A stretch of DNA of 32,000 bases from Acaryochloris thomasi RCC1774 (GCF_003231495.1 NZ_PQWO01000006.1:60001-92000); one strand, 5' to 3'; positions 10,001 through 28,589 are shown, counted from the first letter of the stretch. Notes: a model not told the origin generated them from the sequence alone. Numbers and translations are program-made.

Positions 10001-11398
10001 CTAAACAATCATCTCTTCTAAAGACGTCTGCAGTTCTCGCGTCAGCGCTTCAACTTCTTGACGGGCGTGGCGACGGTCTTTTTGATAGGTCGGGAATCGT
10101 TCTGTCACCGATAGCGGTTTACCCACCGTAATGCGTAGTGACTTGAGACCCAAATCTGGCGGACTGTGGGGATCGCCACCCTTTAGATGTTCAACAATCT
10201 TCCAGACAATTAGAATGGTCTCTGCAAACCGATCAATGCTGGGCTTCTGCAAAATATAGTGGCCCGTAACCGAAGACAGTCGCTCCACAATTCTCATGTG
10301 GTTGAGCTTGAGGCTGGCCTCCTCTGCTGTCCAGTCCGCTAAGCCCTGCTCCAAGGGTGAAAGTTCCTCGATATCTCGATAAATGTGTGACCAACCGGCC
10401 TGCTCAATCTTTCGGCAGCGATCAGATAGGCTACCTTTAGGCTCTAGCCCAAAGTACTCTTCCGCGACCTGTAGCACCACCTCTAAACGAGATTTTAGAC
10501 GCTTCGTCAAATACTGATTGCGATGGCAGCCGTTCACTTCTGGCTCAGCCGTCGCTATCTCAGGGAAGGTGCGATGGTAGTAGCGGGCATAGAAGCCCTC
10601 CATGATCTCTAAGAGATGATCGCTTAAGCGCAACAACCGACCATAAAGTGCATCCGCCTGCGCATCGGCAAGATGTCCCTTCGGTATGCTCATCTCTGGA
10701 GAAATACCTGCTGTCGTCTCCATTTCAGTCAGCAGATCTTCGAGTGGTGACCAGGACAGATCCCGATAGGAATACTGAATCCCGATTGGGACAACGTAGA
10801 CAGACTCAGGCCGGTTTGCCTTGTGCAAATCATCCGCACACCAAAACCCAAGCTGAGCGGCACCAGGCTCTAGCGAGCCTACCATCTCACTATGCTCATT
10901 TGCGCCGCCCTCGGGCGCTAATGAAAGCGGAATCACGCCGTTGGCCATTAAATCTCTCGCCGCCTTCAATCCCTGGCGATCGGCCTTACCCCGAAAAATG
11001 GGGGTGCCGCCCAGCCGAGGGAACAGCCAAGTCACAAATTCCCCCGCCCACAGAGGAATCCCTCGGTCGTACATGAAATGACTACGGACCGGTTCTTTAA
11101 ACTTGACGCCCATTCGCCTTGCTGCTTTGGGGACCGCATACCACAGCAAATAAGCCATCACAAACGGATCTGCCGTACCCGGATGCCGAAACGTTAGCAG
11201 CATCCTGACCTTATCGGCCTGAAATTTCTGATAAAGCTCTACTAAGACTTCAGTATTCTCTGTCTGAATTGAGGCAATGGAGAGCTTGTATCGCATCCAT
11301 GCCGGGAGCAAGAACTTAACGACCCTAATGACCAGCGGATCCAGCCTTTGCGGCAGAAATTTGAGAGGCGGCTGAACTTTACGGACGGGCTGCGGCAA
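10001..11398 (-). CDS. Glycerolipid acyltransferase (PlsC/GPAT superfamily, long 465-aa form)
   Basis: It has an HX4D motif (FRHPGTADP) and a downstream PEGG motif (SLAPEGGANEHS). The only in-frame start upstream of the conserved-looking N-terminus is TTG at 11398, so the start is uncertain. The next in-frame ATG is at 11296. Its stop lies 1 nt from the sqdB stop (convergent). Confidence 0.6.
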   Translation of the reverse strand: MPQPVRKVQPPLKFLPQRLDPLVIRVVKFLLPAWMRYKLSIASIQTENTEVLVELYQKFQADKVRMLLTFRHPGTADPFVMAYLLWYAVPKAARRMGVKFKEPVRSHFMYDRGIPLWAGEFVTWLFPRLGGTPIFRGKADRQGLKAARDLMANGVIPLSLAPEGGANEHSEMVGSLEPGAAQLGFWCADDLHKANRPESVYVVPIGIQYSYRDLSWSPLEDLLTEMETTAGISPEMSIPKGHLADAQADALYGRLLRLSDHLLEIMEGFYARYYHRTFPEIATAEPEVNGCHRNQYLTKRLKSRLEVVLQVAEEYFGLEPKGSLSDRCRKIEQAGWSHIYRDIEELSPLEQGLADWTAEEASLKLNHMRIVERLSSVTGHYILQKPSIDRFAETILIVWKIVEHLKGGDPHSPPDLGLKSLRITVGKPLSVTERFPTYQKDRRHARQEVEALTRELQTSLEEMIV

Positions 11399-14192: not shown

Positions 14193-15215
14193 ATGGGTGT
14201 AGACATGACGACTTGGTATTTCAGTTACGGTGCAGACCGGATTGGCCCTCTAGAAGAGCAGCAAGCCATTGCTCAAGCCCAACAAAATCCCAACGGCCAC
14301 TGCTGGAAACAGGGATTCACCGACTGGCTCCCCATTGGGCAAGTGCCTGAACTTAATCCGAGCGCACGCGCGATGCCCTCGACTCCGCCGCCGCCGACCC
14401 CAGGGACGGATCATGAAATTGACTACAAGCTCTACGGCGAAGATATGCAGTTCGTTGAGATTGAGTTAGACCCGGGGGAAAGTGCGATCGCAGAAGCCGG
14501 AGCCATGATGTATAAAGATGCATCGGTTCAGCTTGAGACGATCTTTGGTGACGGCTCCAACAAAGCAGCAGGCGGTGGCTTAATGGATAAGCTCGTCGGA
14601 GCCGGTAAGCGCCTCGTCACTGGTGAGAGTCTATTCACCACCGTCTTTACCCACACAGGTCGAGGCAAAGCCCACGTTGCGTTCGCTGCACCCTACCCCG
14701 GAACCATTATCCCAGCGAAGCTCAGCGACTATGGCGGACGGCTGATCTGTCAAAAAGACAGCTTTCTTTGTGCAGCTAAAGGTGTCCAGATTGGCATCCA
14801 TTTTCAGAAAAAGATTCTCACGGGCTTGTTCGGCGGCGAGGGCTTCATCATGCAAAAGCTTGAGGGCAATGGCATGACGTTCTTACATGCAGGCGGCACT
14901 ATCGTTGAACGAGAGTTGAAAGCCGGTGAAACGCTCCACGTCGATACCGGCTGTCTTGTGGCCCTGACCGATTCAGTGAACTACACCATCGAGCAGGTGG
15001 GCAGTATCAAGTCAGCGCTTTTTGCTGGAGAAGGCTTATTCTTAGTCCATCTCACCGGACCGGGCAAAATCTGGCTACAGTCTTTGCCCTTCTCGCGGAT
15101 GGCAGGCCGGATGTTAGCCGCATCGCCGGAGCGCGGTGGCCGCCGTGGCGAAGGATCAGAGCTGGGGGCTATTGGGGCGCTGGGAGCCTTGGGCAATCTC
15201 TTAGACGGAGATTAA
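14193..15215 (+). CDS. GYF_2 (DUF4339) domain fused to a TIGR00266/AIM24-family domain
   Basis: The N-terminus WYFSYGADRIGPLEEQQAIAQAQQNPNGHCWKQGFTDWLPIGQVPEL fits the GYF_2 pattern. It is followed by a P-rich linker (PSTPPPPTPG). The rest (EIDYKLYGEDMQFVEIELDPGESAIAEAGAMMY...GEGFIMQKLEGNGMTFLHAGGTIVERELKAGETLHVDTGCLVA...GPGKIWLQSLP) is typical of AIM24/TIGR00266. A second in-frame ATG at 14205 is an alternative start. Confidence 0.7.
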   Translation: MGVDMTTWYFSYGADRIGPLEEQQAIAQAQQNPNGHCWKQGFTDWLPIGQVPELNPSARAMPSTPPPPTPGTDHEIDYKLYGEDMQFVEIELDPGESAIAEAGAMMYKDASVQLETIFGDGSNKAAGGGLMDKLVGAGKRLVTGESLFTTVFTHTGRGKAHVAFAAPYPGTIIPAKLSDYGGRLICQKDSFLCAAKGVQIGIHFQKKILTGLFGGEGFIMQKLEGNGMTFLHAGGTIVERELKAGETLHVDTGCLVALTDSVNYTIEQVGSIKSALFAGEGLFLVHLTGPGKIWLQSLPFSRMAGRMLAASPERGGRRGEGSELGAIGALGALGNLLDGD

Positions 15216-15272
15216 TCAAGCTGCATTCTAACGGCGGACGCAGAATCTAAGACTCTCTTCTTTTTCTGTGGC

Positions 15273-15300
15273 TATACCGTCTCCCAAAAGAGGCGGTATA
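15273..15300 (+). terminator. Possible stem-loop terminator after the GYF-AIM24 gene
   Basis: TATACCGTCTC-CCAAAA-GAGGCGGTATA forms an 11-bp stem with one G-U pair. It lies 58 nt after the stop at 15215. The trailing U-tract is weak (CTGTCTT). Confidence 0.35.
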
Positions 15301-15327
15301 CTGTCTTAGTGCTGAAAAGCACGTTTA

Positions 15328-15401
15328 GGGCATGTAGCTCAGATGGATAGAGCATCAGATTCCGGTTCTGAGGGTCGGGGGTTCGAATCCCTCCATGCTC
15401 G
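15328..15401 (+). tRNA. tRNA-Arg (anticodon CCG)
   Basis: Hand-folded cloverleaf: acceptor GGGCATG/CATGCTC, D arm GCTC-AGATGGATA-GAGC, anticodon arm TCAGA-TTCCGGT-TCTGA (anticodon CCG), variable loop GGGTC, T arm GGGGG-TTCGAAT-CCCTC, discriminator G. 74 nt, CCA not encoded. Confidence 0.9.
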
Positions 15402-15561
15402 TTAGAGGCAAAGGCTTCAAATAGTTATCACAATAGGAATGTCTGTATTCTTGGAAATCCTTATGCTGACCTGAAATTTTGGGCTGTCGAGACACCCATC
15501 GGGTGAGACAATACGATATGTGTCGGATACGCACGACCCTCAATAACCAGGTAAGGAATAA

Positions 15562-16095
15562 ATGTTTAAACGGATTGCTGCGATCGCAATAGTCATGCTC
15601 ATGCTGACGGGCTGTGTCAGTCCCGATGCGGGTTTGAAAAGTTTTTCAGACAACATTGACGGCTACAACTTTCTCTACCCCAATGGCTGGGTGTCAGTGC
15701 AGGTGTCAGGAGGGGCTGATGTTGTCTATCGTGATCTCATTGAAGAGACAGAGAATGTCAGCGTCGTCGTTAGTCCGGTTTCTGGAGAGCGCAACTTAAC
15801 CGATTTGGGTGACCCTACTGCAGTCGCTAACGGTATTCTGAATGCCGTCATCGCTCCACCCGATTCAGGTGTTAAAGCCTCTCTGGTCTCAGCAGCCTCT
15901 CGCGAAGAGGAAGACAAGACTTATTACAAGCTGGATTACAAGGTAGAGCTACCCATCGGCAATCGCCATAACCTATCGAGCGTTGTCGTGCGTCGGGGTA
16001 AGCTATTCACCCTGAATATCTCAGCTCCAGAGGCGCGTTGGGAAACAGTGGAACCTCTCTTTCAGGAAGTGGTCGATTCATTCTCGGTGTACTAA
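15562..16095 (+). CDS. psbP: CyanoP (PsbP-like photosystem II lipoprotein)
   Basis: 177-aa ORF with the lipobox LMLTGC. It then has DGYNFLYPNGWVSVQVSGGADVVYRDLIEETENVSVVVSPV and GKLFTLNISAPEARW, typical of cyanobacterial PsbP homologues. There is an SD-like AGGTAAGGA upstream. Confidence 0.85.
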   Translation: MFKRIAAIAIVMLMLTGCVSPDAGLKSFSDNIDGYNFLYPNGWVSVQVSGGADVVYRDLIEETENVSVVVSPVSGERNLTDLGDPTAVANGILNAVIAPPDSGVKASLVSAASREEEDKTYYKLDYKVELPIGNRHNLSSVVVRRGKLFTLNISAPEARWETVEPLFQEVVDSFSVY

Positions 16096-16104
16096 TATTT
16101 GGCT

Positions 16105-16130
16105 AGGGTCCCAACTCGGGACCCTTTTAT
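16105..16130 (+). terminator. Rho-independent terminator of the psbP-like gene
   Basis: AGGGTCCC-AACTC-GGGACCCT is an 8-bp GC-rich stem with a 5-nt loop, followed directly by TTTTAT. It lies 10 nt after the stop. Confidence 0.75.
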
Positions 16131-16158
16131 CCTTGTATATGGCATCTCTGTATATTTA

Positions 16159-16231
16159 GGGGAATTAGCTCAGCTGGTAGAGTGCTGCGATCGCACCGCA
16201 GAGGTCAGGGGTTCGAATCCCCTATTCTCCA
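16159..16231 (+). tRNA. tRNA-Ala (anticodon CGC)
   Basis: Hand-folded: acceptor GGGGAAT/ATTCTCC with the Ala identity pair G3:U70, D arm GCTC-AGCTGGTA-GAGT, anticodon arm CTGCG-ATCGCAC-CGCAG (anticodon CGC), T arm AGGGG-TTCGAAT-CCCCT, discriminator A. 73 nt. Confidence 0.9.
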
Positions 16232-16358
16232 TTTTCCTAGAAGAACGAACCTCGGTTTTACAAAATCAGAGATTCCATCACGAAAGGCTTGAGCTAAGTT
16301 AGGCGAGTGAGCGGCCCATGTAGACTTGAATGATTGCAATCCAGCCCCCCGCCTGCAA

Positions 16359-18254
16359 ATGGATTCTCACGATCAATCCCTATCCCCCACGAAACGAGCG
16401 CTCCAGGCGATCCAACTTTTACAGGCCAAGGTGGAGGCGTTGGAAAAAGCTAGGGATCAGCCTATTGCTGTTATTGGTCTTGGCTGCCGCTTCCCCGGAG
16501 CCAGTAATCCTTCTGAATTCTGGGAACTCCTTCAAGGTGGCAAGGATGCCATTTCAGAAATTCCCCGCGATCGATGGGATATCAATCGCTACTACAGTCC
16601 TGATCCCGGCAGCCCTGGCAAAATGACCACCCGTTATGGTGGGTTTGTCTCAGATCTCTTGGACTTCGACGCCAAGTTCTTCCGGGTTTCCCCCCGAGAA
16701 GCAATGAGTTTAGACCCCCAGCAGCGACTGCTCCTAGAAGTCAGTTGGGAAGCTCTAGAGAATGCGGGATTGGCGCCCGACTCACTGGCAGACCGTCAGG
16801 TCGGTGTCTTTGTTGGCATCAGCGCTATTGACTACTGGCACCAGCTTCTCAAGCGCGATGCTGACGATATTGATGCTTATTTAATTACCGGCAATACCCA
16901 TAGCGTGGCCTCCGGTCGCATTTCTTATCTCCTAGGGCTGACGGGACCGAGTTTGTCTGTTGATACGGCCTGCTCCTCTTCGCTGAGCGCGATGCATCTG
17001 GCTTGTCAAAGCCTACGTCATGACGAGTGCAGCGTTGCGATTGCGGGTGGGGTGAATGGCATTCTCAATCCAGAGGCCACGATCAACTTTTCCAAGGCCC
17101 AAATGTTGTCCGCCGATGGGCGCTGTAAGTCTTTTGATCAAGCGGCGGATGGTTTTGGTCGGGCTGAGGGATGTGGTGTCGTAGTGCTCAGGCGACTCAG
17201 CGATGCCGTTGCCGATGGCGACAATATCCGGGCGGTGATTTTAGGATCAGCGCTCAACCATACGGGGCGCACCAGTGGTTTGACGGTGCCCAAGGGACCG
17301 GCTCAGCAACAGGTGATTAGAGATGCGATCGCAACCACTAAACTCACCCCCAGCCAGATCAGCTACATTGAAGCCCACGGCACCGGCACTGCTCTGGGCG
17401 ACCCCATCGAACTCGGAGCCTTGCGCGAAGTCTTTGGTCCGCATCGCAGTGAACCGCTCCTCGTTGGATCGGTCAAGACCAACATTGGCCATCTCGAAGC
17501 CGCCTCCGGTATGGCCGGATTGATTAAGGTGGTTCTGTCCCTGCAGCACAGCGCGATTCCCGCCAACCTTCACTTCAAAACGCCGACCCCTCACTTTGAC
17601 TGGAGCCAGCCGCTGCAGGTACCTACGCAGTTGACCCCCTGGCCCTCTTCCGACTCGCCACGGACTGCCGGAGTGAGTGCCTTTGGCTTCAACGGTACCA
17701 ATGCCCATCTGATCGTCTCCGAGCCACCCGATATCTCCATCTCCCAGGTGCCTCCTCTTCCCTATCAGCTCCTCACCCTCTCTGCCCGCAGCGCCCTTGC
17801 CCTACAGCAGCTTATCAATCGCTATATCAACTTTCTCAAGCATCGACCCCAGCTTTCCTCGCTGGGTGAATTGTGCTGGACCGCGAATACCGGACGATCT
17901 CATTTTCCCCACCGCTTAGCTGTCATTGCCGCCTCAGTCTCAGAGCTGCAAAAGCATTTGCTGGCCGTCAGTCAAGGCACAACTCCCACGGGCGTGATTC
18001 AGGGACAGGGGAACAATGCGAGCACTTCCACAGTCCAATTGAGCCATCAACAGATCCAAGTCTCTGGACTCTCAAACAAGGTGCAGAAGATTCCACTACC
18101 GCCGCCCTCTGAGCAGTGGTTGCTTGTTTTGAAGGCTCTTGCTGAGCAGTATGTGATGGGTGCTTCTATCCATTGGCAGACGTCAGGGTTTCAACCGTAT
18201 CGTAAAATTGAGTTGCCGACCTATCCCTTTCAGAGACAGCATTACGGCCTGTGA
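16359..18254 (+). CDS. Stand-alone type I PKS-like beta-ketoacyl synthase (KS plus linker subdomain; no AT, ACP, KR or DH)
   Basis: [43 protein letters not shown] (Cys codon 16971-16973), [14 protein letters not shown] (His 17376-17378), [12 protein letters not shown] (His 17490-17492) and [11 protein letters not shown] are present. The C-terminal ~175 aa resemble the KS-AT linker plus post-AT linker and end [13 protein letters not shown]-stop. I prefer the ATG at 16359 (MDSHDQ...) over the track's TTG at 16326. Confidence 0.85.
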
Positions 18255-18305
18255 AGATAGCTGTTAAGAGCGTTTATTCCCTTGCTATAATTGGAGAAGT
18301 TTGTA

Positions 18306-18968
18306 ATGACAAACCCCATGCCTAAATCTATGATTGCCGACTCGTTAAAAACTGGACAACGCCTAACTGCTGGCCTCCTCGGACTAGGGTTAGTGTTAGG
18401 GGCCAGTCAAGCGCTTGCGGCCAAGACTCATCCATTCGATGCTCAATCAGGTGAGCGGTTTTCGTCAACTGCAGCTCAGCAGTTAGTCGCAGTTCAGCCG
18501 GGTCAAGTTTCAGTAACCGGTCAAAATGGGCAGTACAGGGGAGAGGTCTTGGTGCAGGCGCCCGCCGATATGGCTTGGAAGGTGCTGACGGACTATGAGA
18601 ACTTTAAAAACTTTCTGCCTAATGTGTCTGAAAGTCGCGTGATCTCCGCTGAAGGCAATCAAAAAGTCTTTGAGCAGGTCAACGTTTTCCGGGTCCTTAC
18701 TTTTACGAAACAGGCTCGGGTCAAGATGGCTTCTACAGAGAGCTATCCCAAGCAGGTCTCTTTTCAAGTCATGGAAGGCGATGTCAAAGATCTGAAGGGA
18801 ACCTGGACGATTTCATCGCCTGCGCCGAATCAAGTCCTGATCAGCCATGAGGTGACCGTTGTTCCCAAGGATTCAGACAACAAGACGATGTTTTTTGGCA
18901 TCTATAAAAATTCACTAAAGAAGACGATCGCAGCCGTGGGCAAAGAGGTTGAGCGTCGCGCACAGTAG
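18306..18968 (+). CDS. Secreted SRPBCC-superfamily protein (polyketide cyclase/dehydrase-like, START fold)
   Basis: The signal peptide is LTAGLLGLGLVLGASQALA-AK. The body VLVQAPADMAWKVLTDYENFKNFLPNVSESRVI...FEQVNVFRVLTFTKQARVKM...LKGTWTI...ISHEVTV fits the Polyketide_cyc2/SRPBCC pattern. I prefer the ATG at 18306 (GGAG 11 nt upstream) over the TTG at 18291. Confidence 0.65.
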   Translation: MTNPMPKSMIADSLKTGQRLTAGLLGLGLVLGASQALAAKTHPFDAQSGERFSSTAAQQLVAVQPGQVSVTGQNGQYRGEVLVQAPADMAWKVLTDYENFKNFLPNVSESRVISAEGNQKVFEQVNVFRVLTFTKQARVKMASTESYPKQVSFQVMEGDVKDLKGTWTISSPAPNQVLISHEVTVVPKDSDNKTMFFGIYKNSLKKTIAAVGKEVERRAQ

Positions 18969-19800
18969 TCCCTTACCCAGCGATACCCACGCCATTATTA
19001 CCGGTGGCTCAAGCGGTATTGGTCGAGCCACGGCAGCGGTGCTCGCCCAGCAGGGTGCGAGTCTAACGCTGATTGCCCGCACCGCATCAAAATTAGAGGA
19101 GACCCGTCAAGCTATTGAACGGCAGGGCCTGCAGAACTCGCAGCAGGTTTTGACGCTCACGGCGGATGTGTCAGATCGCGCCCAGGTAGAGAAGGCGATT
19201 GGAGATGCGATCGCAACCCTAGGTCCGCCCGATCTATTAATTACCTGTGCTGGCATCGCCCACTGCGACTACTTTCAGAACCTATCCCTCGAAATGTGTG
19301 AGCAGGCGATGGCCGTCAACTATTTCGGGTCGCTGTACTGCATTCGCGCTGTCTTACCGGCGATGGAACAGCGGCGTCAGGGTCACATTGTCGTAGTTTC
19401 CTCCGGCGTGGGCTTGATTGGACTGTACGGATACAGCGCCTACAGCCCGACCAAATTTGCTCTGCGGGGACTGGCTGAATCCCTGAGAGGGGAGCTTAAA
19501 CCTTTAGGGATTGGCATCTCTATTGTCTATCCCCCCGATACCGATACGCCCCAACTCGCCCAAGAGAATCTGACTAAGCCTTTAGAAACGCAGCGCATTA
19601 GCAGCACCGCCAAAACTTGGACGGCAGAACAGGTAGCCCACACCATTCTTTCCGGTCTCAAAAACAAAAAATTTATGATTGCTCCCGGTCAAGAGATGAC
19701 GGTACTCGCGCGATTACACAGTCTCATTTCTCCTTTGCTGCATCGCTACTTTGACGGCATCGTGGCTAAAACGCGCCGAGAACGGCAGTCCCATGACTAG
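18949..19800 (+). CDS. Short-chain dehydrogenase/reductase, 3-ketodihydrosphingosine-reductase (KDSR/FVT1)-like subfamily
   Basis: It has the Rossmann motif ITGGSSGIGRA and the catalytic residues SSGVG...YSAYSPTKFALRG (YxxxK). The C-terminal tail LISPLLHRYFDGIVAK resembles the KDSR tail (…FDSIVRR) as I recall it. There is no in-frame ATG upstream of the Rossmann motif. The only canonical start is TTG at 18949, which overlaps the preceding gene by 20 nt. Confidence 0.75.
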   Translation: MSVAHSSPLPSDTHAIITGGSSGIGRATAAVLAQQGASLTLIARTASKLEETRQAIERQGLQNSQQVLTLTADVSDRAQVEKAIGDAIATLGPPDLLITCAGIAHCDYFQNLSLEMCEQAMAVNYFGSLYCIRAVLPAMEQRRQGHIVVVSSGVGLIGLYGYSAYSPTKFALRGLAESLRGELKPLGIGISIVYPPDTDTPQLAQENLTKPLETQRISSTAKTWTAEQVAHTILSGLKNKKFMIAPGQEMTVLARLHSLISPLLHRYFDGIVAKTRRERQSHD

Positions 19801-21577
19801 TTGGCAGCATTTTCTTGATCGAAGCCAGCGCCTGTTTACGCCCAATAACCGCACCTTCTGGTTCCGGCTTAGTTTTATCGCTCCCCTTTACTTTGGCTTG
19901 ATTGCCCTTGGCTACCAGATGTTGGGGCCTGAATATGTTGTTCAAGACGATGCCCGCCAGCATGTGGTGTGGATGCAGCGGTTTGTTGACCCGCAGGTGT
20001 TTGCAGGAGATGCGATCGCAAACTACTATCTCGCCATTGCTCCCCCTGGCTATAAAGGTTTCTATTGGATACTTGCTCAGCTCGGCATTGAACCCCTGCT
20101 CACGGCCAAATTTCTGCCCCTGATTTTGGCGCTGATCACCACATATTTTGCCTATAAACTGGCCCTGAAAATCTTGCCGGTTCACCTCTGCGGCTTCTTG
20201 ACCACCCTCATTCTCAATCAACAAATTTGGCTAGATGATGAACTGATCTCAGCCACACCCCGCGCTTTCTACTATCCGCTATTCACGACTTTTCTCTACT
20301 GTGTGACCCAGCGCGCGCTGATCCCTTGTCTTGCCATTATTGCCTTGCAGGGACTTTTTTACGCTCCGGTAATGCTGCTCAGCGTTGCGATCTTGAGCCT
20401 CCGGCTATTGACCTGGAGACAGCGCTGGCCCCGATTGACGCAGGATCGGAGCCGCTATCTTTTCTGGTTCGCAGGTTGCTCAGTCGCCGCCCTGGTTATT
20501 CTTTTCCTACTCCGTAGTCAGGGTGTCGGTCCCACCGTGACCGCTTTGCAAATGAGAGATCTGCCTGAGTTTGGCCTCCACGGACGCCACGAATATTTTG
20601 ACGTCAACCCCCTCTACTTTTTGTTTCAAGGTAGAAGCGGCCTCAACATTTCTTGGTTTCCCGCCAGTATTCTCATGGGCTTGGCGCTGCCCTTCCTCGC
20701 CATCGGTCGCTTCACTCAAAAAATGACGCCTAATGTTGCCGTCATTTACCAGTCCTTTGCTGCCGCTCTCGGCCTGTATATCCTGGCTCATTTACTGTTG
20801 TTTAAGCTCTACTACCCTAGCCGATATACCTACCACAGCCTCCGGGTAATCCTCGCGCTCGCTGCTGGCATCGCACTGACGATCCTGCTAGAAGCTGGCT
20901 GGTCTTGGATGCAGCACAAACGGCAAACGCAGGCTCCCTTCCACCGTCGAGAGCAGCTTTTGATTACATTCATTGGTTTATTGATCGCCATTGAATTGCT
21001 TGTCCCGGCCCTGCCACCGGTCTTTTTAGCAATGGAAGTCTGGATTGAGGGCCAAGCACCCGAACTTTACACCTTTCTTGCCCAGCAGCCACGCGATACG
21101 GTTGTCGCCACCCTCGCTCCAGAAAGTGATAATTTGGGTGCCTTTGCCCAGCGATCGACGCTCATGGGCCATGAATTCGCCCTCGCCTTGCATCCTCAAT
21201 TCCACCGGGTTGTGCAGCAGCGGATTGCTGCTTTGCTGGACGCACAGTACAGCTCAGATCCAGCCGTTGTGCAGCAAATTATTGATCAATACAGCATTGA
21301 TTTCTTTTTGGTTGAGCATTCTGCCTTTACCCCCGAGTATCTCCTGAGTCAGGATTGGCTTGTTAATCGCTCAGACACGGCTTCAGTCACGAAAGCGATT
21401 CAGCAGATGCGCACAAAGCCTACGAGTTTGCTCTTTCCCAAGGCCCTCACGCCCTGTGGTATTCGTTCGACCCAAGACTGGACTTTACTGGAAACGCAGT
21501 GTCTCAGCCGGTTTCTTGCGACATCTCCGATTACGGACCGCAGCGGGAGAGAAACAGATGATCCACGGGCTAGCTAG
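19793..21577 (+). CDS. Large polytopic membrane protein with a C-terminal soluble domain; possibly a GT-C-type glycosyltransferase
   Basis: 594 aa from the ATG at 19793, which overlaps the SDR stop (ATGACTAG). About 10-12 hydrophobic helices are visible. The first predicted loop carries an acidic DD motif (EYVVQDDARQHVVWMQRF), as in GT-C enzymes. The last ~170 aa are hydrophilic. The function is inferred only. Confidence 0.6.
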   Translation: MTSWQHFLDRSQRLFTPNNRTFWFRLSFIAPLYFGLIALGYQMLGPEYVVQDDARQHVVWMQRFVDPQVFAGDAIANYYLAIAPPGYKGFYWILAQLGIEPLLTAKFLPLILALITTYFAYKLALKILPVHLCGFLTTLILNQQIWLDDELISATPRAFYYPLFTTFLYCVTQRALIPCLAIIALQGLFYAPVMLLSVAILSLRLLTWRQRWPRLTQDRSRYLFWFAGCSVAALVILFLLRSQGVGPTVTALQMRDLPEFGLHGRHEYFDVNPLYFLFQGRSGLNISWFPASILMGLALPFLAIGRFTQKMTPNVAVIYQSFAAALGLYILAHLLLFKLYYPSRYTYHSLRVILALAAGIALTILLEAGWSWMQHKRQTQAPFHRREQLLITFIGLLIAIELLVPALPPVFLAMEVWIEGQAPELYTFLAQQPRDTVVATLAPESDNLGAFAQRSTLMGHEFALALHPQFHRVVQQRIAALLDAQYSSDPAVVQQIIDQYSIDFFLVEHSAFTPEYLLSQDWLVNRSDTASVTKAIQQMRTKPTSLLFPKALTPCGIRSTQDWTLLETQCLSRFLATSPITDRSGRETDDPRAS

Positions 21578-21855
21578 GCTGGAAAGATCGATGCTTCTGC
21601 AGCTTTTGTCGTTTCTCGTAGAGATGACGTTCTGCAAACTCCAAGATGGTCAGATTAGAGTCATCCAAGTACAAGTTGTAAAAAATTGAGTCATAAAGGA
21701 CGACTCCCGATAGATCCATGTGGCAAAAATCCTTTTGACCTGCAAGGTATTTCTCCCAAAACTGCAGGGTTTTCCCAGAGCCAACATGTTCTTTAGAGGT
21801 AGATATTGTGGGTCGCTATCAAAAGGAAACAGAAAGAATCGTCGTTATAAACGGA

Positions 21856-21896
21856 CGGTCACTTTAGCAAAACAATAAGCATTGCTAAAGTGACCG
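21856..21896. repeat. Perfect 15-bp inverted repeat (hairpin) in the AT-rich gap
   Basis: CGGTCACTTTAGCAA (21856-21870), an 11-nt spacer AACAATAAGCA, then TTGCTAAAGTGACCG (21882-21896). There is no U-tract on the plus side and only TTTAT on the minus side. Confidence 0.7.
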
Positions 21897-22268
21897 CCTG
21901 AACTATACCCCCCGAATAATCAGTACAGGTCTTTATCAAATCTGCACTGATATACAGTTCCTAAGCGTCAACGTGAGTGAGGTCAACTTACGACTCAGTA
22001 TTTATTCCTAAGAAGTAATTTTCAAGAACTGCATGTGTCTTTATGATTCACTAATTTTGGGGTTGATTAACTCCTCCAGGTGGGTGGTATTGCCCCTATC
22101 TTCTGGGTGATACTTTCGGTTAAGTTAGTGTCAGAGCACTGTACTGGCTTCATCTGTCACTTTGGTTGAATGGCTTTTGTTAGCGAGGTTTTATTCGCTC
22201 TGAAATGGAGACTGGGTACACTTCTCCTTACTTTTTTGATTGCTCTCTAAGGTGCTAAGTATTTTGCT

Positions 22269-22922
22269 ATGAGTAAAGCTATTCAGCTCCCTAAGTGGCG
22301 TGTATTAATCGTCGAAGATGATCCACTGGTACAGCTTGGTCTTGAACAGGCACTGGTAGACTACGTCGAGCTAACAGTTGTGGGACTGGTTGATGATGGC
22401 TATTTGGCGGTAGAGGCAATTTTGGAAAAACGACCTGATTTGGTCTTAATGGATCTCGGACTGCCGGGCTTAGATGGTATTGAAATCACTCAGCGCGTCA
22501 AGGAAAAACTGCCTGATTTAAAGGTCGTCATTCTAACGTCGCACACCTCTGATGAAGAGGTATTTGCGGCTCTCTCTAGCGGTGCAGATGCCTACTGTGT
22601 GAAAGGCGGGGGGATTGAGCTGTTACTCACTGCGATCGCATCTGTTTCTCAGGGTTCTTTATACTTAGACGTTAAGATTGCCCATACCATTCTGCAAGAG
22701 ATGCGTTCAAGCCCCACCGTAAAGCTTGAACATCCCTTAACTGAGCGAGAGTTTGATGTTTTGAGGCTGTTGGTCGAAGGGTTAAACAACACAGAGATTG
22801 CGGGTCGTCTTTACATCAGCCCCAACACCGTCAAGTCCCATATGCGCGGTCTGATGAGTAAATTGGCGGTGAGCGATCGCGTTCAGGTGGCGGTGAAAGC
22901 TTTACGGGCTGGCTTAGTCTGA
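22269..22922 (+). CDS. NarL/FixJ-type response regulator (REC + LuxR-type HTH)
   Basis: The REC domain shows VLIVEDDPLV and LVLMDLGLPGLDG (phospho-acceptor Asp). The HTH is LTEREFDVLRLLVEGLNNTEIAGRLYISPNTVKSHMRGLMSKLAV. Confidence 0.9.
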   Translation: MSKAIQLPKWRVLIVEDDPLVQLGLEQALVDYVELTVVGLVDDGYLAVEAILEKRPDLVLMDLGLPGLDGIEITQRVKEKLPDLKVVILTSHTSDEEVFAALSSGADAYCVKGGGIELLLTAIASVSQGSLYLDVKIAHTILQEMRSSPTVKLEHPLTEREFDVLRLLVEGLNNTEIAGRLYISPNTVKSHMRGLMSKLAVSDRVQVAVKALRAGLV

Positions 22923-23075
22923 TGCTGCCGATCGCACAAGCAAAAACGACAGTCGAGGCGTTTCTCAACCCTCCCTTGAGAAGGGGTACAGGAAACAGGG
23001 TTTGGCAAAGACGGCCCGACTTATTTGGGGCGCAAACCCTCCATCTATAACGGTACAAGCGAACAAATTGTCCCT

Positions 23076-24434
23076 ATGATTAACAGCACTGTTCTGAAAC
23101 TAGGCAATCTCGACCCGATGGTTTTCGCCCAGGACCGGGGGGAAGGTAAGCAGGCAGGGGCGGCTTGGAAAATTATGCTAGTGGATGATGATGTCTCCAT
23201 TCATCAAGCCACGAAGGTCGCGCTCAAGTTTTTTACCTTTGAAGGCCGATCGCTACACTTTGTCTCAGCCTACTCAGCTCAGGAAGCCAAGAGCTTAATT
23301 CAGTCACATCCTGATACGGCCTTGATTTTGCTCGATGTGATTATGGAAAGTCAGGACGCGGGACTGCAGGTCGCTCAATATATTCGCGAGGTTGCTCAAA
23401 ACTCGATTGTGCGGATTATTCTGCGGACCGGGCAGCCTGGGCAGGTTCCGGAGGAGTCGGTGGTGGTGGAGTATGACATCAATGACTATAAAACTAAGCT
23501 AGAGTTAACGCAGCAAAAGCTCTTTACGACACTGGTTTCAAGTCTGCGATCCTATCGCGATCTGCTGGCGCTCCAGGAGAGCCAGAATGAGCTGGCCCAG
23601 CTTAATCTTGAGCTGCAGCGTTTTAATCAAAACCTAGAGCAGCTTGTTTCTGAGCGGACCCAAGCGCTGGAGCAAAAAAATGATCAGCTCACCCACGAAG
23701 TGCAGGAGCGGCAAAAGGCAGAAGACGCTCTGCGTATTTACCTGCATGCTCTCACCCACGACTTGCGCAACCCGGTAACGGGAATGATGAATGTCGTGGG
23801 CAGCTTACTGAAGCGGCCGACCACGGGTGATGATTCCGCCCCTCAAATACAGATCCCGAGCTCGGTGATCACGCGGATGAAGGCAGGGTGTGATCGTCAG
23901 CTAAAAATGATCAACTCACTGATTGAAACACATGAAATAGAGGTTTGGGGAATCGCACTCCGGCAGCAGCCCTTTGCCCTGGAAACAATGCTACAGGGGT
24001 TGGCAGAGGAATGGGAGCCTAGCTTCAGCAAAAAGCGAATGACGGCAGCTTATCAAATTGAGCCAGGTTTACCTCTGGTCTATGGTGATCGCAATCAAAT
24101 CTGGCGCGTCTTTGAAAATCTGCTGGCCAACGTCATTAAATACAACCCGCCGGGGATTGCCGTATCGGTCACGGTTACGGTAGATGCTGACCCTGCTCGA
24201 CTTCGCTGCGCCGTGACCGATACGGGGACGGGCATCGACGCCAACCAAATCCCGGATTTATTTAAGCTATACCAGCGGGGAAGTACGCGACCCACCCGGG
24301 GGTTAGGCATCGGTCTCTATATTTGTCGCTGCATTGTAGAAGCCCACTGTGGCACGATTGGCATTAATAGTGAGCTTGGTGCAGGCTCTGAATTTTGGTT
24401 CACCTTGCCAACGATGAGAGAAGACTGCTCATAA
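23076..24434 (+). CDS. Response-regulator receiver fused to a histidine kinase (REC, coiled coil, HisKA, HATPase_c)
   Basis: The REC domain shows IMLVDDDVSIH...ILLDVIMESQDAG...RIILRTGQPGQVPEESVVVEYDINDYKTKLELTQQKLF (DUF3369-type receiver as I recall). The H-box is LHALTHDLRNPVTG. The ATPase boxes are NLLANVIKYN, DTGTGI and GLGIGLYICR. I prefer the ATG at 23076 over the track's TTG at 23025. Confidence 0.85.
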   Translation: MINSTVLKLGNLDPMVFAQDRGEGKQAGAAWKIMLVDDDVSIHQATKVALKFFTFEGRSLHFVSAYSAQEAKSLIQSHPDTALILLDVIMESQDAGLQVAQYIREVAQNSIVRIILRTGQPGQVPEESVVVEYDINDYKTKLELTQQKLFTTLVSSLRSYRDLLALQESQNELAQLNLELQRFNQNLEQLVSERTQALEQKNDQLTHEVQERQKAEDALRIYLHALTHDLRNPVTGMMNVVGSLLKRPTTGDDSAPQIQIPSSVITRMKAGCDRQLKMINSLIETHEIEVWGIALRQQPFALETMLQGLAEEWEPSFSKKRMTAAYQIEPGLPLVYGDRNQIWRVFENLLANVIKYNPPGIAVSVTVTVDADPARLRCAVTDTGTGIDANQIPDLFKLYQRGSTRPTRGLGIGLYICRCIVEAHCGTIGINSELGAGSEFWFTLPTMREDCS

Positions 24435-24452
24435 TTTTCGAGTCCGCTTCTG

Positions 24453-27400
24453 ATGCGCAACCTTCAGCTTCTAATGCCCCAAGTGTTTAGAAAATCTCCC
24501 CTATCTCCCCTACGGCGGATTCTGATTTTGGGTTTTGTGCTGCCCCTTGTGGGGACCGTGGGCTTAGTGGAGTATCTGGCCTGGAAGGATGGGGAGCAGG
24601 CCGTCGAGCAGCTTGTTGGACAGCTTCAGCAGCGCGTGGGCGATCGCATCGAAGAACGCCTGCAGCACTATACCGAAGCCCCGGTCCAGGTGACGGAGAT
24701 TTTAGATCGCGCCCTGAAGCGAGGTGACCTAGATATTAATCAACTACAGGATTGGGGACCATACCTCTTCGATCAAGGGCAAATTTTTCAGTCGCTCCCC
24801 TTTCTTTACTTTGGCAATCAAGCTGGGGACTTTGTCATGCTAACCCAGGCTCCAAGGAGCAGCGATCAGGTGACATGGAGGGAGGGCAAACGACCAACCA
24901 CCTTAAAATACCTTGGCGACCCTCTCCGTCAGACTATCCAGGAGGAACCAACGACTCCGTTCGATCCGAGGACACGCCCTTGGTATAAACTTGCGGCAGC
25001 CGGTAAAGCGCAGTGGACCGATGTCTATGAATTTGTAAATCCCCCCGATACGCTAGGGAGCGGCTTTGTCCGTCCCTACTTCAGTGCGGATGGCAAAACG
25101 CTGTTGGGGGTGATGGGGGCAGACGTGACGCTAATTGATATCAATCGTTTTCTAACGAATTTGACAGTGAGTGAGTCAGGAGAAGCATTTGTTCTGGATC
25201 GAGAGGGGACGCTCATCGGGAGTACGGCGAAGGAGGCTCCCCTTAGCGGTAAGAACCAGCCGCGACGGATCAATGAGACTCGAAATCCGTTAATTCAAGC
25301 GACAGGGCAATACCTGCAGCAGCAGTTCAGTGACTTTGGCCAGGTCACGAAAACCCAGTCCCTGAGCTTCAGCAAAGGGGGCAAACGCCAGCTGGTCCAG
25401 ATTCGACCCTTCAGTGATGACTTTGGACTGGACTGGCTGGTGGTGGTGGTGGTGCCCGAGTCAGACTTTACCGGATCCATTCGGGACAACGCTCGGATGA
25501 CACTCTTGCTGTCACTGGGGATTCTGGGACTGGTGATTGCGTTAGCAGTGGTCTTAGCTCAAAAAATCAGCACGGCGATGTCGAGACTGAGTCAAGCCAG
25601 CCAAGAGATTGCCCTGGGCAATCTGAAGCAGATGATTTCAGGCTCCAGTATCAAAGAGCTGGATGTAATGGCTCAGACTTTTAACCACATGAGTCAAGAA
25701 CTGCAGCAGTCTTACGCTCAGCTTGAGGACTATTCACGCTCTTTAGAAACCAAGGTGCAGGAGCGAACTCAGGAGCTAGAGCAGGAGGTTTGCGATCGCA
25801 AGCTCAGCGAACAGCGGTTTAGAACCCTCGTTGCCAATATCCCAGGTGCCGTCTATCGGTGCAGGCTAGACGAGAACTGGACGATGTTGTTCATCAGTGC
25901 CGCGATTGTTGATATCAGCGGTTACCCGGCTTCAGACTTTATTCAAAATCAACCCAGAGCCTTTGGTGACATCATTGTGCCGGAGGACTTGGAGCGAGTT
26001 GCAGCCTCGATTGAGCAAGCACTCCAGGATCGCCAGCCCTATGTTTTGCAATACCGCATCCGGCATGCCGATGGTGAGATCCATTGGGTTTATGAAAAAG
26101 GGCAGGGGGTGTTCGCCCCTGATAGCGATCGGGTTCTTTGTTTAGATGGTGCCATCTTCGATATCACTTCTCAGAAGCAGGCTGAAGCGGACCTGATCCG
26201 CTCAGAGCAGAAGTACCGAACCCTGAATGACGCGACTCAAGATGCCGTTATGCTGCTAGATGGGCAGTCGTTTCTTGACTGCAATCCGGCCACGCTCAGA
26301 ATTTTTGGTTGCCGCAGCACAGAGGATTTTTGTGGCAAAGGTCCGGTTGATTTTTCTCCCCCTTATCAACCTGACGGTCGCTCATCACAGCAGGGCGCAC
26401 AGGAAACAATTGCCGCTGCTCTGCAGTCAGGTACTCATAACTTTGAATGGCTCCACCAGCGGCAAGATGGGACACAATTCCCCGCAGATGTCTGGCTGAC
26501 CTCAATGGAGATTGAGGGCAAAAAAGTCGTTCAGGCTGTTGTTAGAGATATTAGCGATCGCAAACGGGCTGAAGAGGCCATGCAACATAGTGCCGCGATC
26601 GATAGTTTGCTCAGTGAAATCTCCCAAACGCTATTAGATCAAGACCTTGATACCGCGATTGGGTTTGCGCTGCAGCAGGTGGGTGAGTTTGTGGGTTGCG
26701 ATCGCAGCTGCATCTATGCCTTCTCTGACTCACATCAACTTAGCATTACCCACGAATGGTGTGCCGACGGCGTCCCCTCACTCTCGGCACAACGTCAAAG
26801 TTTGAATGCGGATGCCTACCCTTGGTTTGCTGACCACTTACTCAAAGGCAAAACACTTCAGGTCAAGGATGTCGCCAATCTCCCACCCGAAGCCGCGTCA
26901 GAAAAAGTAGAGCTTGAGCATCAGTTGATTCAGGCTTTACTCAATGTACCGATGGTTCATGCCGATCAGGTCGTTGGTTCTATCAGCTTAGAAACGATAA
27001 AAATCATCAAAAACTGGCAAGACACCGACATCAATCTGCTCAATCGAGTCGGTGAGATGATCGCCCTCTCTCAAGCGAGACATGCAGCAGAAGTGGCGCT
27101 GCAGCAGGCCAAAGAAATCGCAGAAATGGCCAATAAAACCAAGAGCGAATTTCTCGCCAACATGAGCCACGAGCTGCGCTCTCCCCTCAACTCCATTTTG
27201 GGCTTTTCTCAACTGATGACCCGCAGCAATACCCTGTCATCAGAACATCAGGACAACGTGGGCATCATTAGCCGCAGCGGCGAACATTTGCTCGATCTGA
27301 TTAACGATGTGCTTGATATGTCTAAGATCGAAGCCGGTCGCACGACTCTCAATCTCGTTGATTTTGATCTTCACGTCCTGCTTGACGACCTTCAGGCAAT

Positions 27401-28589
27401 GTTCTTACTCCGGGCAGAAGAGAAGCAGCTCCAGTTTGAGTGTGACCGTTCCCCCGACCTCCCCCAATATATTCATGCCGATCAGGGTAAGCTGCGCCAG
27501 ATACTCATCAATTTGTTGAGTAATGCGATCAAATTCACTCAAGTCGGACGCATTACACTGCGAACGCATGCAGAGCAGGCAAACCATCTACAAGAGAACC
27601 TGACCCTCCACTTTGAAGTGGAAGATACAGGGCTGGGGATTGCGGTTGATGAGCTAAAGCAAGTTTTTGAACCCTTTGTTCAATCACAATCCGGTCAAGA
27701 TATTCAGGAGGGAACGGGATTAGGCTTACCCATCAGCCGTGAATTTGTCCGGTTAATGGGGGGAGAGATGCTGCTCAACAGTCGATGTGCTCCAGCGTTG
27801 GAAAGTCACAATCAGGCCGCTGTGCCAGAAGATGCTCAATTCGAACATGGCACGATCGCAACCTTCCATATTCAAGCCAGGGCTGCGGCTGCGGTTCAGA
27901 GCATTCGCCCCGATCGACGGATCCTGGCTCTGGCCGCTGGACAACCTAGCTATCGCATCCTGGTGGTGGATGATAAAGCCGACAACCGTAGACTGCTGGT
28001 GAAGCTGTTGGAACCGCTGGGATTTGAGCTGCGGGAAGCAAGCAACGGTCAGGTTGCCGTCCAGCTTGGCCACGTCTGGCAGCCCCACCTGATCTGGATG
28101 GATATGCGGATGCCCATGATGGATGGTCTGGAAGCGACCCGACGCATTCGAGTAGACGTGACATCCGATGCACCTCCCCCCAAAATTATTGTGCTCTCAG
28201 CCAGCAACTTGCCAGAAGATCAGGCCGCAGCCTACGCCGCTGGATGCGATGACTTTATTCAAAAGCCTTTTCATGAGGCCCAGGTTCTTGAAGCGATGGG
28301 CCAGCATATTGGGGTGCGCTATATATATGATGACGAAATCTACGACGATGGGCCATCACTTGACACTCCTGACGGTCAATTGAACGGTTCCTTAGCCCAG
28401 CTATCGCCGCAGCTTTTGGCGGAATTAGAAGCTGCAACGCTTCGTCTGCAGTGGGATCAGCTCCTAGCGCTGATTGGCAATATTCATGAGCAAGACAAGG
28501 CGCTCGCCGACCGACTCACCCGAACCGTCCATAACTTCCAATACACACAGATTTTGCAGGCGATTCAAGCCGTGAAGGAGGAGCAATGA
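24453..28589 (+). CDS. Hybrid sensor histidine kinase: TM, Cache-like periplasmic domain, TM, HAMP, PAS, PAS, GAF, HisKA, HATPase_c, REC, helical C-terminal tail
   Basis: TM1 is [22 protein letters not shown] and TM2 is [21 protein letters not shown], flanking ~290 aa. HAMP is [17 protein letters not shown]...[15 protein letters not shown]-like blocks are [15 protein letters not shown] and [19 protein letters not shown]-like is [16 protein letters not shown]. The H-box is [15 protein letters not shown]. ATPase boxes are [16 protein letters not shown] and GTGLGL. REC is [14 protein letters not shown]...[12 protein letters not shown]. Confidence 0.9.

Follow-up and report, generated by a model that had tools for sequence, protein, structure and literature searches.

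What do a stand-alone ketosynthase (KS), a secreted SRPBCC protein, a short-chain dehydrogenase/reductase (SDR) and a polytopic membrane protein do together? The question is raised by a stretch of 32,000 nucleotides from Acaryochloris thomasi RCC1774 (NZ_PQWO01000006.1:60001-92000, hereafter the window), in which the four corresponding genes, hereafter the cassette, lie one behind the other on the same strand. The initial annotation, made from the sequence alone, had proposed a candidate uncharacterised lipid or glycolipid pathway. Synteny, the protein families and the fold of the membrane protein, a predicted glycosyltransferase of the GT-C type, all support this proposal; the product and the enzyme steps are what I infer from them. 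The explanation that I favour, at about even odds (probability near 0.5), is that the cassette constitutes the back end of a widespread cyanobacterial lipid pathway that involves a fatty acyl-AMP ligase (FAAL) and a type I polyketide synthase (PKS) and that feeds the cell envelope.

Gene structure and protein families of the cassette

The gene structure is directly established. The boundaries listed in Table 1 are exactly those of RefSeq entries WP_110986204 to WP_110986207, and the membrane protein is 100% identical to C1752_02244 of A. thomasi RCC1774. Direct reading of the junctions bears out the tight packing described by the initial annotation: the KS stop codon (18254) and the SRPBCC ATG (18306) are 51 nt apart, the SDR gene overlaps the end of the SRPBCC gene (18968) by 20 nt, and the ATG of the membrane-protein gene lies over the SDR stop codon within ATGACTAG (19793-19800), an overlap of 8 nt. 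The SDR gene indeed has no usable ATG, and the TTG at 18949 is the sole in-frame start 5' of the Rossmann motif TGGSSGIG. The original GenBank model of the SDR (PZD73269, 253 aa) begins 3' of this cofactor motif and falls short; the plausible model is that of RefSeq, with 283 aa and the TTG start. The four genes are probably co-transcribed as one self-contained cassette. The single operon originally proposed gained little from a search for internal promoters and terminators: a consensus scan of positions 15000-23000 performed no better than on shuffled sequence, which is weak evidence for one transcript. The composition profile is unremarkable (GC 0.49-0.58 across the cassette, 0.47-0.56 in the rest of the window), and horizontal transfer of the cassette, considered as a possible origin, was dropped since nothing in this profile is unusual.

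The KS looks like a working ketosynthase of the cis-AT type from which the acyltransferase (AT) has been cleanly removed. It matches both halves of ketoacyl-synt in Pfam (N, 3.6e-101; C, 4.4e-44) and also carries KAsynt_C_assoc and a CurL-like/RhiE-like KS-AT linker (Pfam/NCBIfam). Pfam detects neither Acyl_transf_1 nor PP-binding in the protein, which ends after the linker domain (hence KS-LD) and the post-AT linker; it is therefore not a canonical cis-AT type I PKS module, in which KS, AT and acyl carrier protein (ACP) are united in one protein. Conversely, the Cys-His-His triad and the decarboxylation Lys of an elongating type I PKS ketosynthase are all in place: C205 (DTACSSS), H340 (EAHGTGT), and K373 and H378 (VKTNIGH) are invariant among 11 aligned orthologues. 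The N-terminal coiled-coil helix, of the docking type, is conserved in the same 11 proteins, and the post-AT linker motif LPTYPFQRQ at the C-terminus is invariant. It is because catalytic residues, docking helix and post-AT linker are all conserved that the enzyme is taken to be functional. Most of its 120 best matches are likewise stand-alone KS-LDs, of 606-670 aa, and all of those named by organism are cyanobacterial.

Comparison with solved structures agrees with this assignment. The best single-domain relative is CurL, a cyanobacterial cis-AT KS (4mz0, residues 4-557), and the KS aligns over its full length to the AT-less KS-LD constructs of PksJ (4na1) and PksL. The architecture thus fits a trans-AT KS-LD, yet the best single relative is the cis-AT CurL and the window holds no trans-AT gene. 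A trans-AT-like reading based on a 796-bit match to 7zma was discarded, since that chain has two KS domains and the score is their sum. NCBIfam reports a weak similarity to PigJ and a match to Pks13 that is confined to the KS region (535 bits against a cut-off of 2100). As the KS comes without ACP, AT or thioesterase (TE), mycolate-type condensation (FadD32, Pks13, CmrA) is a functional analogy only. A second type of KS was encountered in two of the loci compared (such loci are cited by L-number throughout): in L086 and L087, a protein of ~815 aa, ~61% identical, has a partial AT and is directly followed by an SRPBCC gene. This type may represent a stage on the way to losing the AT.

The SDR had been described as closest to 3-ketosphinganine reductases, and this holds with greater clarity when a profile is used. 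The protein belongs to adh_short/KR (Pfam), and its TGGSSGIG motif, N124, S151/S152 and Y165-x3-K169 are invariant; a further motif reads PPDTDTPQL..EN.TKP.ET. In a single-sequence search the top solved relative was TSC10, a 3-ketodihydrosphingosine reductase (KDSR; 1.7e-28). With a profile built from 20 orthologues, TSC10 (8jat) scored 152 bits (1.5e-43) and every other solved SDR at most 125 bits. The alignment with TSC10 continues into the C-terminal substrate region, through EN.TKP..TK.I. The protein thus combines the classical SDR motifs with a closest relationship to a characterised KDSR, which places it in the KDSR family.

For the SRPBCC protein, the initial annotation had noted a Sec signal peptide (ASQALA|AK) and left open a lipid-binding or a cyclase fold. 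The signal peptide is present (~residues 1-38, cleavage ALA|AK) and conserved: in all 13 orthologues inspected, an n-region with positive charge precedes a hydrophobic h-region and a cleavage site of the AxA|Q type. The domain itself matches Polyketide_cyc (PF03364, 1.7e-15), and a profile search detects weak similarity to the START lipid-transfer protein 3qsz and to the cyclase 3tfz; a single-sequence AlphaFold2 model was unusable (pLDDT 38). Because the signal peptide makes the domain extracytoplasmic, a cyclase acting on an ACP-bound chain no longer fits, and the protein is predicted to be an extracytoplasmic lipid binder or carrier.

The membrane protein presented a different difficulty, as it has no sequence match in Pfam, NCBIfam (E up to 0.01) or the PDB, although more than 600 cyanobacterial homologues exist. 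Because these searches were empty, it was identified by fold comparison alone. An AlphaFold2 model built from 86 sequences is of high confidence (pLDDT 93.2, pTM 0.91), and Foldseek comparison with the PDB, the check that had been suggested, returned GT-C enzymes, one of the two possibilities considered in the initial annotation, and no unrelated family: the 27 best matches are all GT-C, with probability 1.00, E down to 4e-8 and a TM-score of ~0.5, and include STT3, AglB, PglB, DPY19, AftA, ArnT, ALG9/12 and Pmt4. The model thus displays the multi-helix membrane module and long external loops of the GT-C fold, and the protein would represent a new GT-C family for which Pfam has no model. Hydropathy and the positive-inside rule predict ~11 transmembrane helices, a cytoplasmic N-terminus and a first loop that faces outside. 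The acidic QDD motif noticed in the first loop is part of Q51-D52-D53-x-R55, invariant in 86 homologues and located 11 residues past the first transmembrane helix in the predicted external loop, as would be expected of the conserved acidic first-loop motif of GT-C enzymes. The C-terminal soluble domain (residues 408-594, ~190 residues) contains invariant C555 and C570 and weakly resembles the globular domain of AglB (3vu0, E ~0.1).

Assignment to a known GT-C family fails at the sequence level. Membership of the PMT_2/ArnT-like proteins is not indicated by Pfam or NCBIfam, and hhalign against the PMT_2 family encoded near some paralogues gave a probability of 0.24; a homology between the two, considered because PMT_2-type GT-C genes stand beside those paralogues, was abandoned as profile-profile comparison found no relationship. 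The WWDYG-type motif of oligosaccharyltransferases (OSTs) is missing from the sequence, as read directly. UniProt automatically names the protein RgtA/B/C/D-like.

Conservation of the cassette and of its partners

If the four genes serve one pathway, their association should recur in other genomes. Neighbours were therefore compared at 79 species-level cyanobacterial loci fetched with the GT-C as anchor. The SDR gene lies immediately 5' of the GT-C gene on the same strand in 19 of these, with a distance from SDR stop to GT-C start of mostly -23 to +4 nt; SRPBCC genes are found in 15 of the 79, and KS-LD genes in ~12, one of them cut short where its contig stops. In a neighbour-joining tree the GT-C of the window falls in a clade in which almost all adequately flanked members are linked to an SDR. 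Anchoring on the KS, the order KS, SRPBCC, SDR, GT-C is found in L083, L088, L091 and L092, and SRPBCC directly follows KS in the window and in L083, L085, L086, L087, L088, L090, L091 and L092. The closest relatives of the window (L002, L091, L092) have the same four-gene cassette, with overlaps of 4 nt and 8 nt; L091 and L092 do not differ in these overlaps.

The flanks of the cassette are unrelated in the window, L002, L091 and L092. Since the whole set recurs amid different flanking genes, the cassette behaves as a unit. Such an arrangement is far from what chance would produce: gene order and overlaps reappear in many species while the flanks differ, so the orthologues are syntenic across cyanobacteria and not scattered. 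Two very tight pairs, KS-SRPBCC and SDR-GT-C, appear from this comparison of gene orders to make up the cassette. Its carriers include Leptolyngbya-like lineages, Elainellaceae, Thermosynechococcaceae, Chroococcus and Pleurocapsales. The 338-aa open reading frames (ORFs) at the KS position in L022 and L063, examined as an alternative condensing enzyme, proved to encode a HisKA protein and a KS-LD cut off by the end of the contig. In Leptolyngbya sp. (CP182898; L085), two ORFs of 131 and 78 aa stand in place of an intact SRPBCC gene, and no GT-C comes after the SDR; a frameshift could be the reason, or the part of the cassette that acts outside the cytoplasm could be decaying.

The loci of relatives also suggest where the acyl chain might come from. 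Directly 5' of the KS-LD, in most other lineages, is a megasynthase of 2,750-3,050 aa with the organisation FAAL-ACP-KS-AT-DH-ER-KR-ACP, where DH, ER and KR stand for dehydratase, enoylreductase and ketoreductase (L005, L007/L083, L015, L088 and L090); stop and start sometimes overlap, and a variant in L084 lacks the KR. These KS-LD-linked megasynthases have an ACP as their C-terminal end, and the commonest complete clusters (L083, L088, L090) contain no α-oxoamine synthase (AOS). In other loci, the megasynthase bears an extra C-terminal AOS, a pyridoxal phosphate (PLP)-dependent enzyme of the BioF/SPT/KBL family. Such a PKS-AOS is followed directly by SDR and GT-C, without separate KS or SRPBCC, in L021 and L061; it is convergent to KS-SDR-GT-C in L069; and a FAAL-PKS(-AOS) is divergent from KS-GT-C in L025 and L031. 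Proteins of the ACP-AOS and PKS-AOS kinds have a very wide distribution in cyanobacteria (7,879 matches at E below 1e-20), A. thomasi not being among the 120 best of these 7,879 matches to the ACP-AOS query. In Chroococcidiopsis sp. (CP083761; L081), a cluster reads 4HBT thioesterase, FabF-like KS, FAAL, FAAL, ACP-AOS, GT4 glycosyltransferase, SDR, with an SDR 65% identical to that of the window; as a candidate pathway, this cluster could make a glycosylated lipid that resembles a sphingoid or a ceramide. No member of the GT-C family is found near the ACP-AOS locus of Hydrococcus (L080), and no AOS lies within 7-10 kb of the four closest cassettes. Small ORFs 5' of the KS in L002, L008 and L014 were considered as possible ACPs and are not ACPs.

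More generally, orthologues of the SDR that are 57-65% identical adjoin PKS-AOS or ACP-AOS genes in relatives, whereas the window has no AOS. Since the SDR repeatedly turns up beside a KS-LD, a PKS-AOS or an ACP-AOS, its family is regularly teamed with an enzyme for a terminal condensation of the Claisen type, be it a KS-LD or an AOS, that would act on a fatty chain bound to an ACP; as far as gene neighbourhoods tell, a GT-C or GT4 glycosyltransferase often completes the set. The initial annotation had stressed that neither an ACP or AT nor an AOS accompanies the genes. This is correct for the window, where no AOS, AT or TE was found among ORFs of at least 150 aa, no phosphopantetheine-attachment motif of an ACP in any of the six frames of the 32 kb, and neither Spt/AOS nor ceramide synthase, as a canonical bacterial sphingolipid pathway would have. 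It does not extend to the relatives: because a FAAL-PKS adjoins the KS there, and a PKS-AOS or ACP-AOS the SDR, the pathway would be PKS-linked, and sphingoid-like in some lineages.

Other partners are found elsewhere in the GT-C family. Stand-alone FadD32-like FAALs occur in 19 GT-C loci, often divergent from the GT-C gene, and α/β-hydrolases of the DUF1400 type with a signal peptide in 15; further neighbours are membrane-anchored α/β-hydrolases, secreted FG-GAP proteins and PagL-like outer-membrane deacylases. The basal GT-C clade is linked to a GT2 glycosyltransferase similar to enzymes that make polyprenyl-phosphate sugars (AglJ, PpgS, ArnC); none is encoded in the window. The family is strongly paralogous, with tandem copies (three each in L074 and L066; two GT-C copies are also found in each of L022, L050 and L018), and its subclades differ in their partners: SDR and KS in one, FAAL, DUF1400 and FG-GAP proteins in another, GT2 and PMT_2 in a third.

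A proposed pathway and the alternatives to it

These associations can be assembled into a model whose substrates and order of steps, like co-transcription, are drawn from comparative genomics and structure prediction. A FAAL would activate a fatty acid, and the megasynthase would extend it, fully reduce it once and present the chain on its terminal ACP; in A. thomasi and its closest relatives, where no such front end adjoins the cassette, the acyl chain would come from an unlinked partner or from acyl-ACP of fatty acid synthase (FAS). The KS-LD, docking by means of its N-terminal helix, would take over the chain and perform the last decarboxylative Claisen condensation, which would create a 3-keto group; in the AOS variants, an amino acid would be condensed instead. 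The KDSR-family SDR would reduce the 3-ketone to a hydroxyl, and would do likewise where the ketone is made by a PKS-AOS or ACP-AOS. The hydroxy-lipid, or amino-hydroxy-lipid in the AOS variants, would then reach the outer face of the cytoplasmic membrane. There, the GT-C would use its QDD loop to glycosylate the lipid, or an envelope acceptor that carries it, with a polyprenyl-phosphate sugar as donor, while the secreted SRPBCC protein would bind the lipid in the periplasm, or possibly in the thylakoid lumen, as a carrier or chaperone. A bolder version, which I put forward tentatively, is that the product is a new class of cyanobacterial envelope glycolipid, with a FAAL/PKS-derived 3-hydroxy or sphinganine-like 2-amino-3-hydroxy aglycone that is finished by the KDSR-type reductase, glycosylated by the GT-C in the periplasm and carried by the SRPBCC protein.

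Several observations weigh against a back-end role in a FAAL/PKS pathway. KDSR-type enzymes normally reduce a free amino-ketone, not a 3-ketoacyl thioester. The 32-kb window encodes no ACP, AT, FAAL, thioesterase or polyprenyl-phosphate sugar synthase, so that the KS is left without a visible substrate carrier or release enzyme. The best structural matches of the GT-C are protein-glycosylating OSTs, with a TM-score of only ~0.5. Finally, the cassette is modular: KS-SRPBCC-SDR occurs without GT-C in L085 and L090, KS-GT-C without SDR in L025, L031 and L089, and numerous GT-C paralogues occur by themselves, so that the four proteins need not depend on one another.

One alternative is a split sphingoid-base pathway, with an unlinked ACP-AOS or PKS-AOS, a KS-LD that only adds an elongation before the AOS acts, an SDR that is a true KDSR and makes a sphinganine-like long-chain base, and a GT-C that glycosylates the base or its N-acyl derivative to yield a cyanobacterial glycosphingolipid-like lipid. 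The distance that separates TSC10 from the other solved SDRs and the motifs shared into the C-terminal substrate region speak for this possibility, as do the position of the SDR family after PKS-AOS in L021 and L061, its company of KS-LD, GT-C and PKS-AOS in L069, its place after ACP-AOS-GT4 in Chroococcidiopsis, the co-occurrence of KS-LD with FAAL-PKS-AOS in L025 and L031, and the wide distribution of ACP-AOS and PKS-AOS in cyanobacteria. I nevertheless consider it doubtful: the AOS is missing from the window and from the 7-10 kb around the four closest cassettes, the megasynthase of the commonest complete clusters ends in an ACP, and no report of a cyanobacterial sphingolipid was found in the literature searched. 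Somewhat more doubtful is a role in the remodelling of lipopolysaccharide (LPS) or lipid A, in which KS and SDR would make a special, possibly very long 3-hydroxy fatty acid, an ArnT/RgtA-D-like GT-C would add a sugar to lipid A or to the LPS core in the periplasm, and the SRPBCC protein would be a chaperone. A 3-hydroxyacyl chain is the hallmark acyl group of lipid A, and a KS followed by a ketoreductase would yield just such a chain; ArnT is among the structural matches of the GT-C, to which the RgtA/B/C/D-like name in UniProt can be added, an ArnC-like GT2 is linked to the basal GT-C clade, PagL-like genes lie beside the GT-C in L050, L053 and L069, and L092 has an AsmA-like gene 5' of its KS. 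Only a few loci, however, show the links to PagL and AsmA, no Lpx-type acyltransferase or dedicated ACP is seen in the window or among the annotated neighbours of cassette loci, the sequence shows no relation to PMT_2/ArnT-type proteins (hhalign probability 0.24), and with FAAL-PKS and AOS as linked partners, a lipid class distinct from lipid A is indicated.

The structural matches of the GT-C lend themselves to yet another interpretation, namely that it is a protein O- or N-glycosyltransferase for nearby secreted proteins (SRPBCC, FG-GAP, DUF1400), or that the SDR modifies a lipid-linked sugar donor in the manner of DprE2, the link to the KS being genomic and not metabolic. STT3, AglB, PglB and the C-mannosyltransferase DPY19, its best Foldseek matches, all glycosylate proteins, the C-terminal domain has a weak resemblance to the globular domain of AglB, and many neighbours of the GT-C family are secreted; in mycobacteria, moreover, the SDR gene dprE2 adjoins the GT-C gene aftA. 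This interpretation is improbable given that the WWDYG-type OST motif is absent, that GT-C paralogues are paired with FAAL genes in 19 loci, which indicates lipid chemistry, and that the SDR is a classical KDSR-type enzyme, repeatedly linked to AOS or KS and without a DprE1-like oxidase as partner. The lack of AT and ACP in the KS, and of partner genes in the window, could also mean that the KS is the decayed remnant of a larger PKS and that the four genes, though neighbours, do not make up a functioning pathway. This is very unlikely indeed, as stand-alone KS-LDs of 606-670 aa make up most of the 120 best matches, the catalytic residues and both termini are invariant in 11 orthologues, and the cassette, with its overlapping genes, is kept in many species and genomic contexts. 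The back end of a FAAL/PKS pathway is the explanation retained here.

Genomic surroundings and comparison with known systems

In the window, the unrelated genes that flank the cassette are a psbP-like gene and tRNA genes upstream and two-component regulators downstream. The KS start lies 127 nt past tRNA-Ala(CGC), which flanks the psbP-like gene together with tRNA-Arg(CCG); an Rfam scan of the window returned these two tRNAs only. A strong GC-rich hairpin with a T run follows the psbP-like gene. Beyond a non-coding gap of 690 nt, the cassette is followed by a response regulator of the LuxR type and a series of hybrid histidine kinases; L001, a close relative, has kept the first two of these 3' of its GT-C (88% and 74% identity). 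The remaining features of Table 1 include, in the window, an adenylylsulfate (APS) kinase gene followed by one for an extended-SDR epimerase/dehydratase, which might be sulfolipid-related. Among the relatives, L092 has an AsmA/DUF748-like gene 45 nt 5' of the KS; this family is implicated in the transport of lipids between inner and outer membrane. HMGL-like genes are divergent from FAAL-PKS in two loci, and isocitrate/isopropylmalate dehydrogenase-type genes stand beside PKS-AOS or GT-C in two; these neighbours could be a coincidence or could supply an unusual precursor.

Table 1. Positions of the cassette genes, of other features of the window (numbered from its first nucleotide) and of features in related loci (L-numbers)
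Feature	Position	Strand	Remarks
KS-LD	16359..18254	+	ATG to TGA, 631 aa
SRPBCC/START-fold secreted protein	18306..18968	+	ATG start, 220 aa
Signal peptide of SRPBCC protein	18306-18419	+	
KDSR-family classical SDR	18949..19800	+	TTG start, 283 aa
Membrane protein, predicted GT-C fold	19793..21577	+	ATG start, 594 aa
Q51-D52-D53-x-R55 motif	19943-19957	+	
MoxR AAA+ / DUF58 (vWA) / DUF4350 / DUF4129 operon	3026-7249	-	
APS kinase, then extended-SDR epimerase/dehydratase	7982-9999	+	
ORF	10001-11398	-	465 aa, no Pfam match
tRNA-Arg(CCG)	15328-15401		
psbP-like gene	15562-16095		
GC-rich hairpin and T run	16105-16125		
tRNA-Ala(CGC)	16159-16231		
LuxR-type response regulator, then hybrid histidine kinases	22269-30244		3' of cassette
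KS-AT-DH-ER-KR-ACP-AOS megasynthases	L021:2414-9115, L061:444-8696, L069:13667-21646		
KS of ~815 aa with SRPBCC	L086:10001-13146, L087:10001-13076		
Split SRPBCC	L085:11992-12620		131- and 78-aa ORFs
Chroococcidiopsis ACP-AOS cluster	L081:4325-13927		
Three tandem GT-C copies	L074, starts 9746, 11521, 13251		
PagL-like genes by GT-C	L050:13030-13863, L053:3375-4337, L069:11648-12505		Lipid A 3-O-deacylase family
AsmA/DUF748-like gene	L092:6976-7659		227 aa
HMGL-like genes	L083:1-457, L084:165-1532		Isopropylmalate/homocitrate synthase-type
Isocitrate/isopropylmalate dehydrogenase-type genes	L069:12612-13670, L012:4201-5241		
Regulators 3' of GT-C	L001:3149-5268		

If the FAAL/PKS model is right, many non-model cyanobacteria would contain a hitherto undescribed envelope lipid or glycolipid, and the GT-C, with over 600 homologues, a clear catalytic motif and testable partners, would define a new family. 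The system would also offer a concrete case of a terminal KS, devoid of AT and ACP, that acts after a FAAL-PKS megasynthase. The pairing of KDSR-type reductases with PKS-AOS or ACP-AOS would amount to sphingoid-base chemistry in cyanobacteria, which are not known to make sphingolipids. Should the more tentative proposal of a new glycolipid class also prove true, the GT-C would be the first with a polyketide or sphingoid lipid as its dedicated acceptor, and cyanobacteria would have their first sphingolipid-like pathway. Each of the enzyme classes is well known, and no description of their combination in one conserved cassette was found. No description of the cluster, of a cyanobacterial KDSR or of cyanobacterial sphingolipids was found in the full-text literature searched, and the cluster is described neither in a phylum-wide survey of cyanobacterial nonribosomal peptide synthetase (NRPS)/PKS clusters nor in a review of FAALs (PMC11837247).

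How does this system compare with those already known? Among cyanobacterial lipids, a conceptual analogy is provided by the heterocyst glycolipids, for which the PKS/FAS-like hgl system assembles a hydroxylated long-chain aglycone; once glycosylated, this becomes part of the envelope. The proposed product would likewise be a hydroxylated aglycone glycosylated for the envelope. By contrast, the cassette has neither HglE/D/C-type synthases nor an HglT-type glycosyltransferase, and its carriers, going by the names in their records, are mostly coccoid or simple filamentous genera that are not known for heterocysts. The GT-C enzymes at large (STT3/PglB, PMT, AftA/Emb, ALG), and ArnT and RgtA-D in particular, share with the membrane protein the predicted fold, an acidic first-loop motif and a C-terminal extracytoplasmic domain, and a GT2 like the polyprenyl-phosphate sugar synthases is linked to part of the new family. 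The latter differs in having no Pfam or NCBIfam similarity to known GT-Cs and in its motif, QDDxR. Its genetic coupling to SDR, KS and FAAL-PKS has no counterpart in the literature searched, and no described GT-C is known to have it.

For the condensation and reduction steps, three comparisons are instructive. In prodigiosin (MBC) biosynthesis, the stand-alone KS PigJ, itself devoid of an ACP, elongates a chain carried by the ACPs of PigH, an ACP-ACP-AOS protein, an arrangement relevant to L025, L031 and L069, where KS-LD and PKS-AOS co-occur; there, however, the substrate is pyrrolyl whereas here it would be fatty acyl, and the KS of the window, which has no AOS, is a type I KS-LD whose architecture is unlike that of PigJ. 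The long-chain-base steps of sphingolipid synthesis obey the same logic as the one proposed here, that is, a Claisen condensation that leaves a 3-ketone on a long chain, followed by reduction by an SDR; the enzymes are serine palmitoyltransferase (SPT)/AOS and KDSR (bacterial example: BT_0972, PMC9278070). The likeness extends to the enzymes, the SDR of the cassette being of the KDSR family and lying beside an ACP-fed, PLP-dependent AOS in related loci. The differences are that the condensing enzyme of the window and of the commonest clusters is a type I KS and not an AOS, that the acyl chain would come from a FAAL-PKS megasynthase and not from acyl-CoA, that no ceramide synthase is seen, and that the glycosyltransferase is a GT-C predicted to face the periplasm instead of a cytoplasmic or Golgi GT-A or GT-B. 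FAAL-primed PKSs, such as the olefin synthases of the Ols/CurM type (PMC11837247), have in common with the clusters of relatives a FAAL-ACP loading unit, after which a single KS-AT-(reductive)-ACP module works on a fatty acid, and the KS of the cassette is closest to the cyanobacterial cis-AT KS of CurL. What sets the cassette apart from them is the manner in which the chain would be finished: in place of a sulfotransferase or thioesterase for off-loading, it has an AT-less KS-LD, a KDSR-type reductase acting in trans, a secreted SRPBCC protein and a predicted GT-C.

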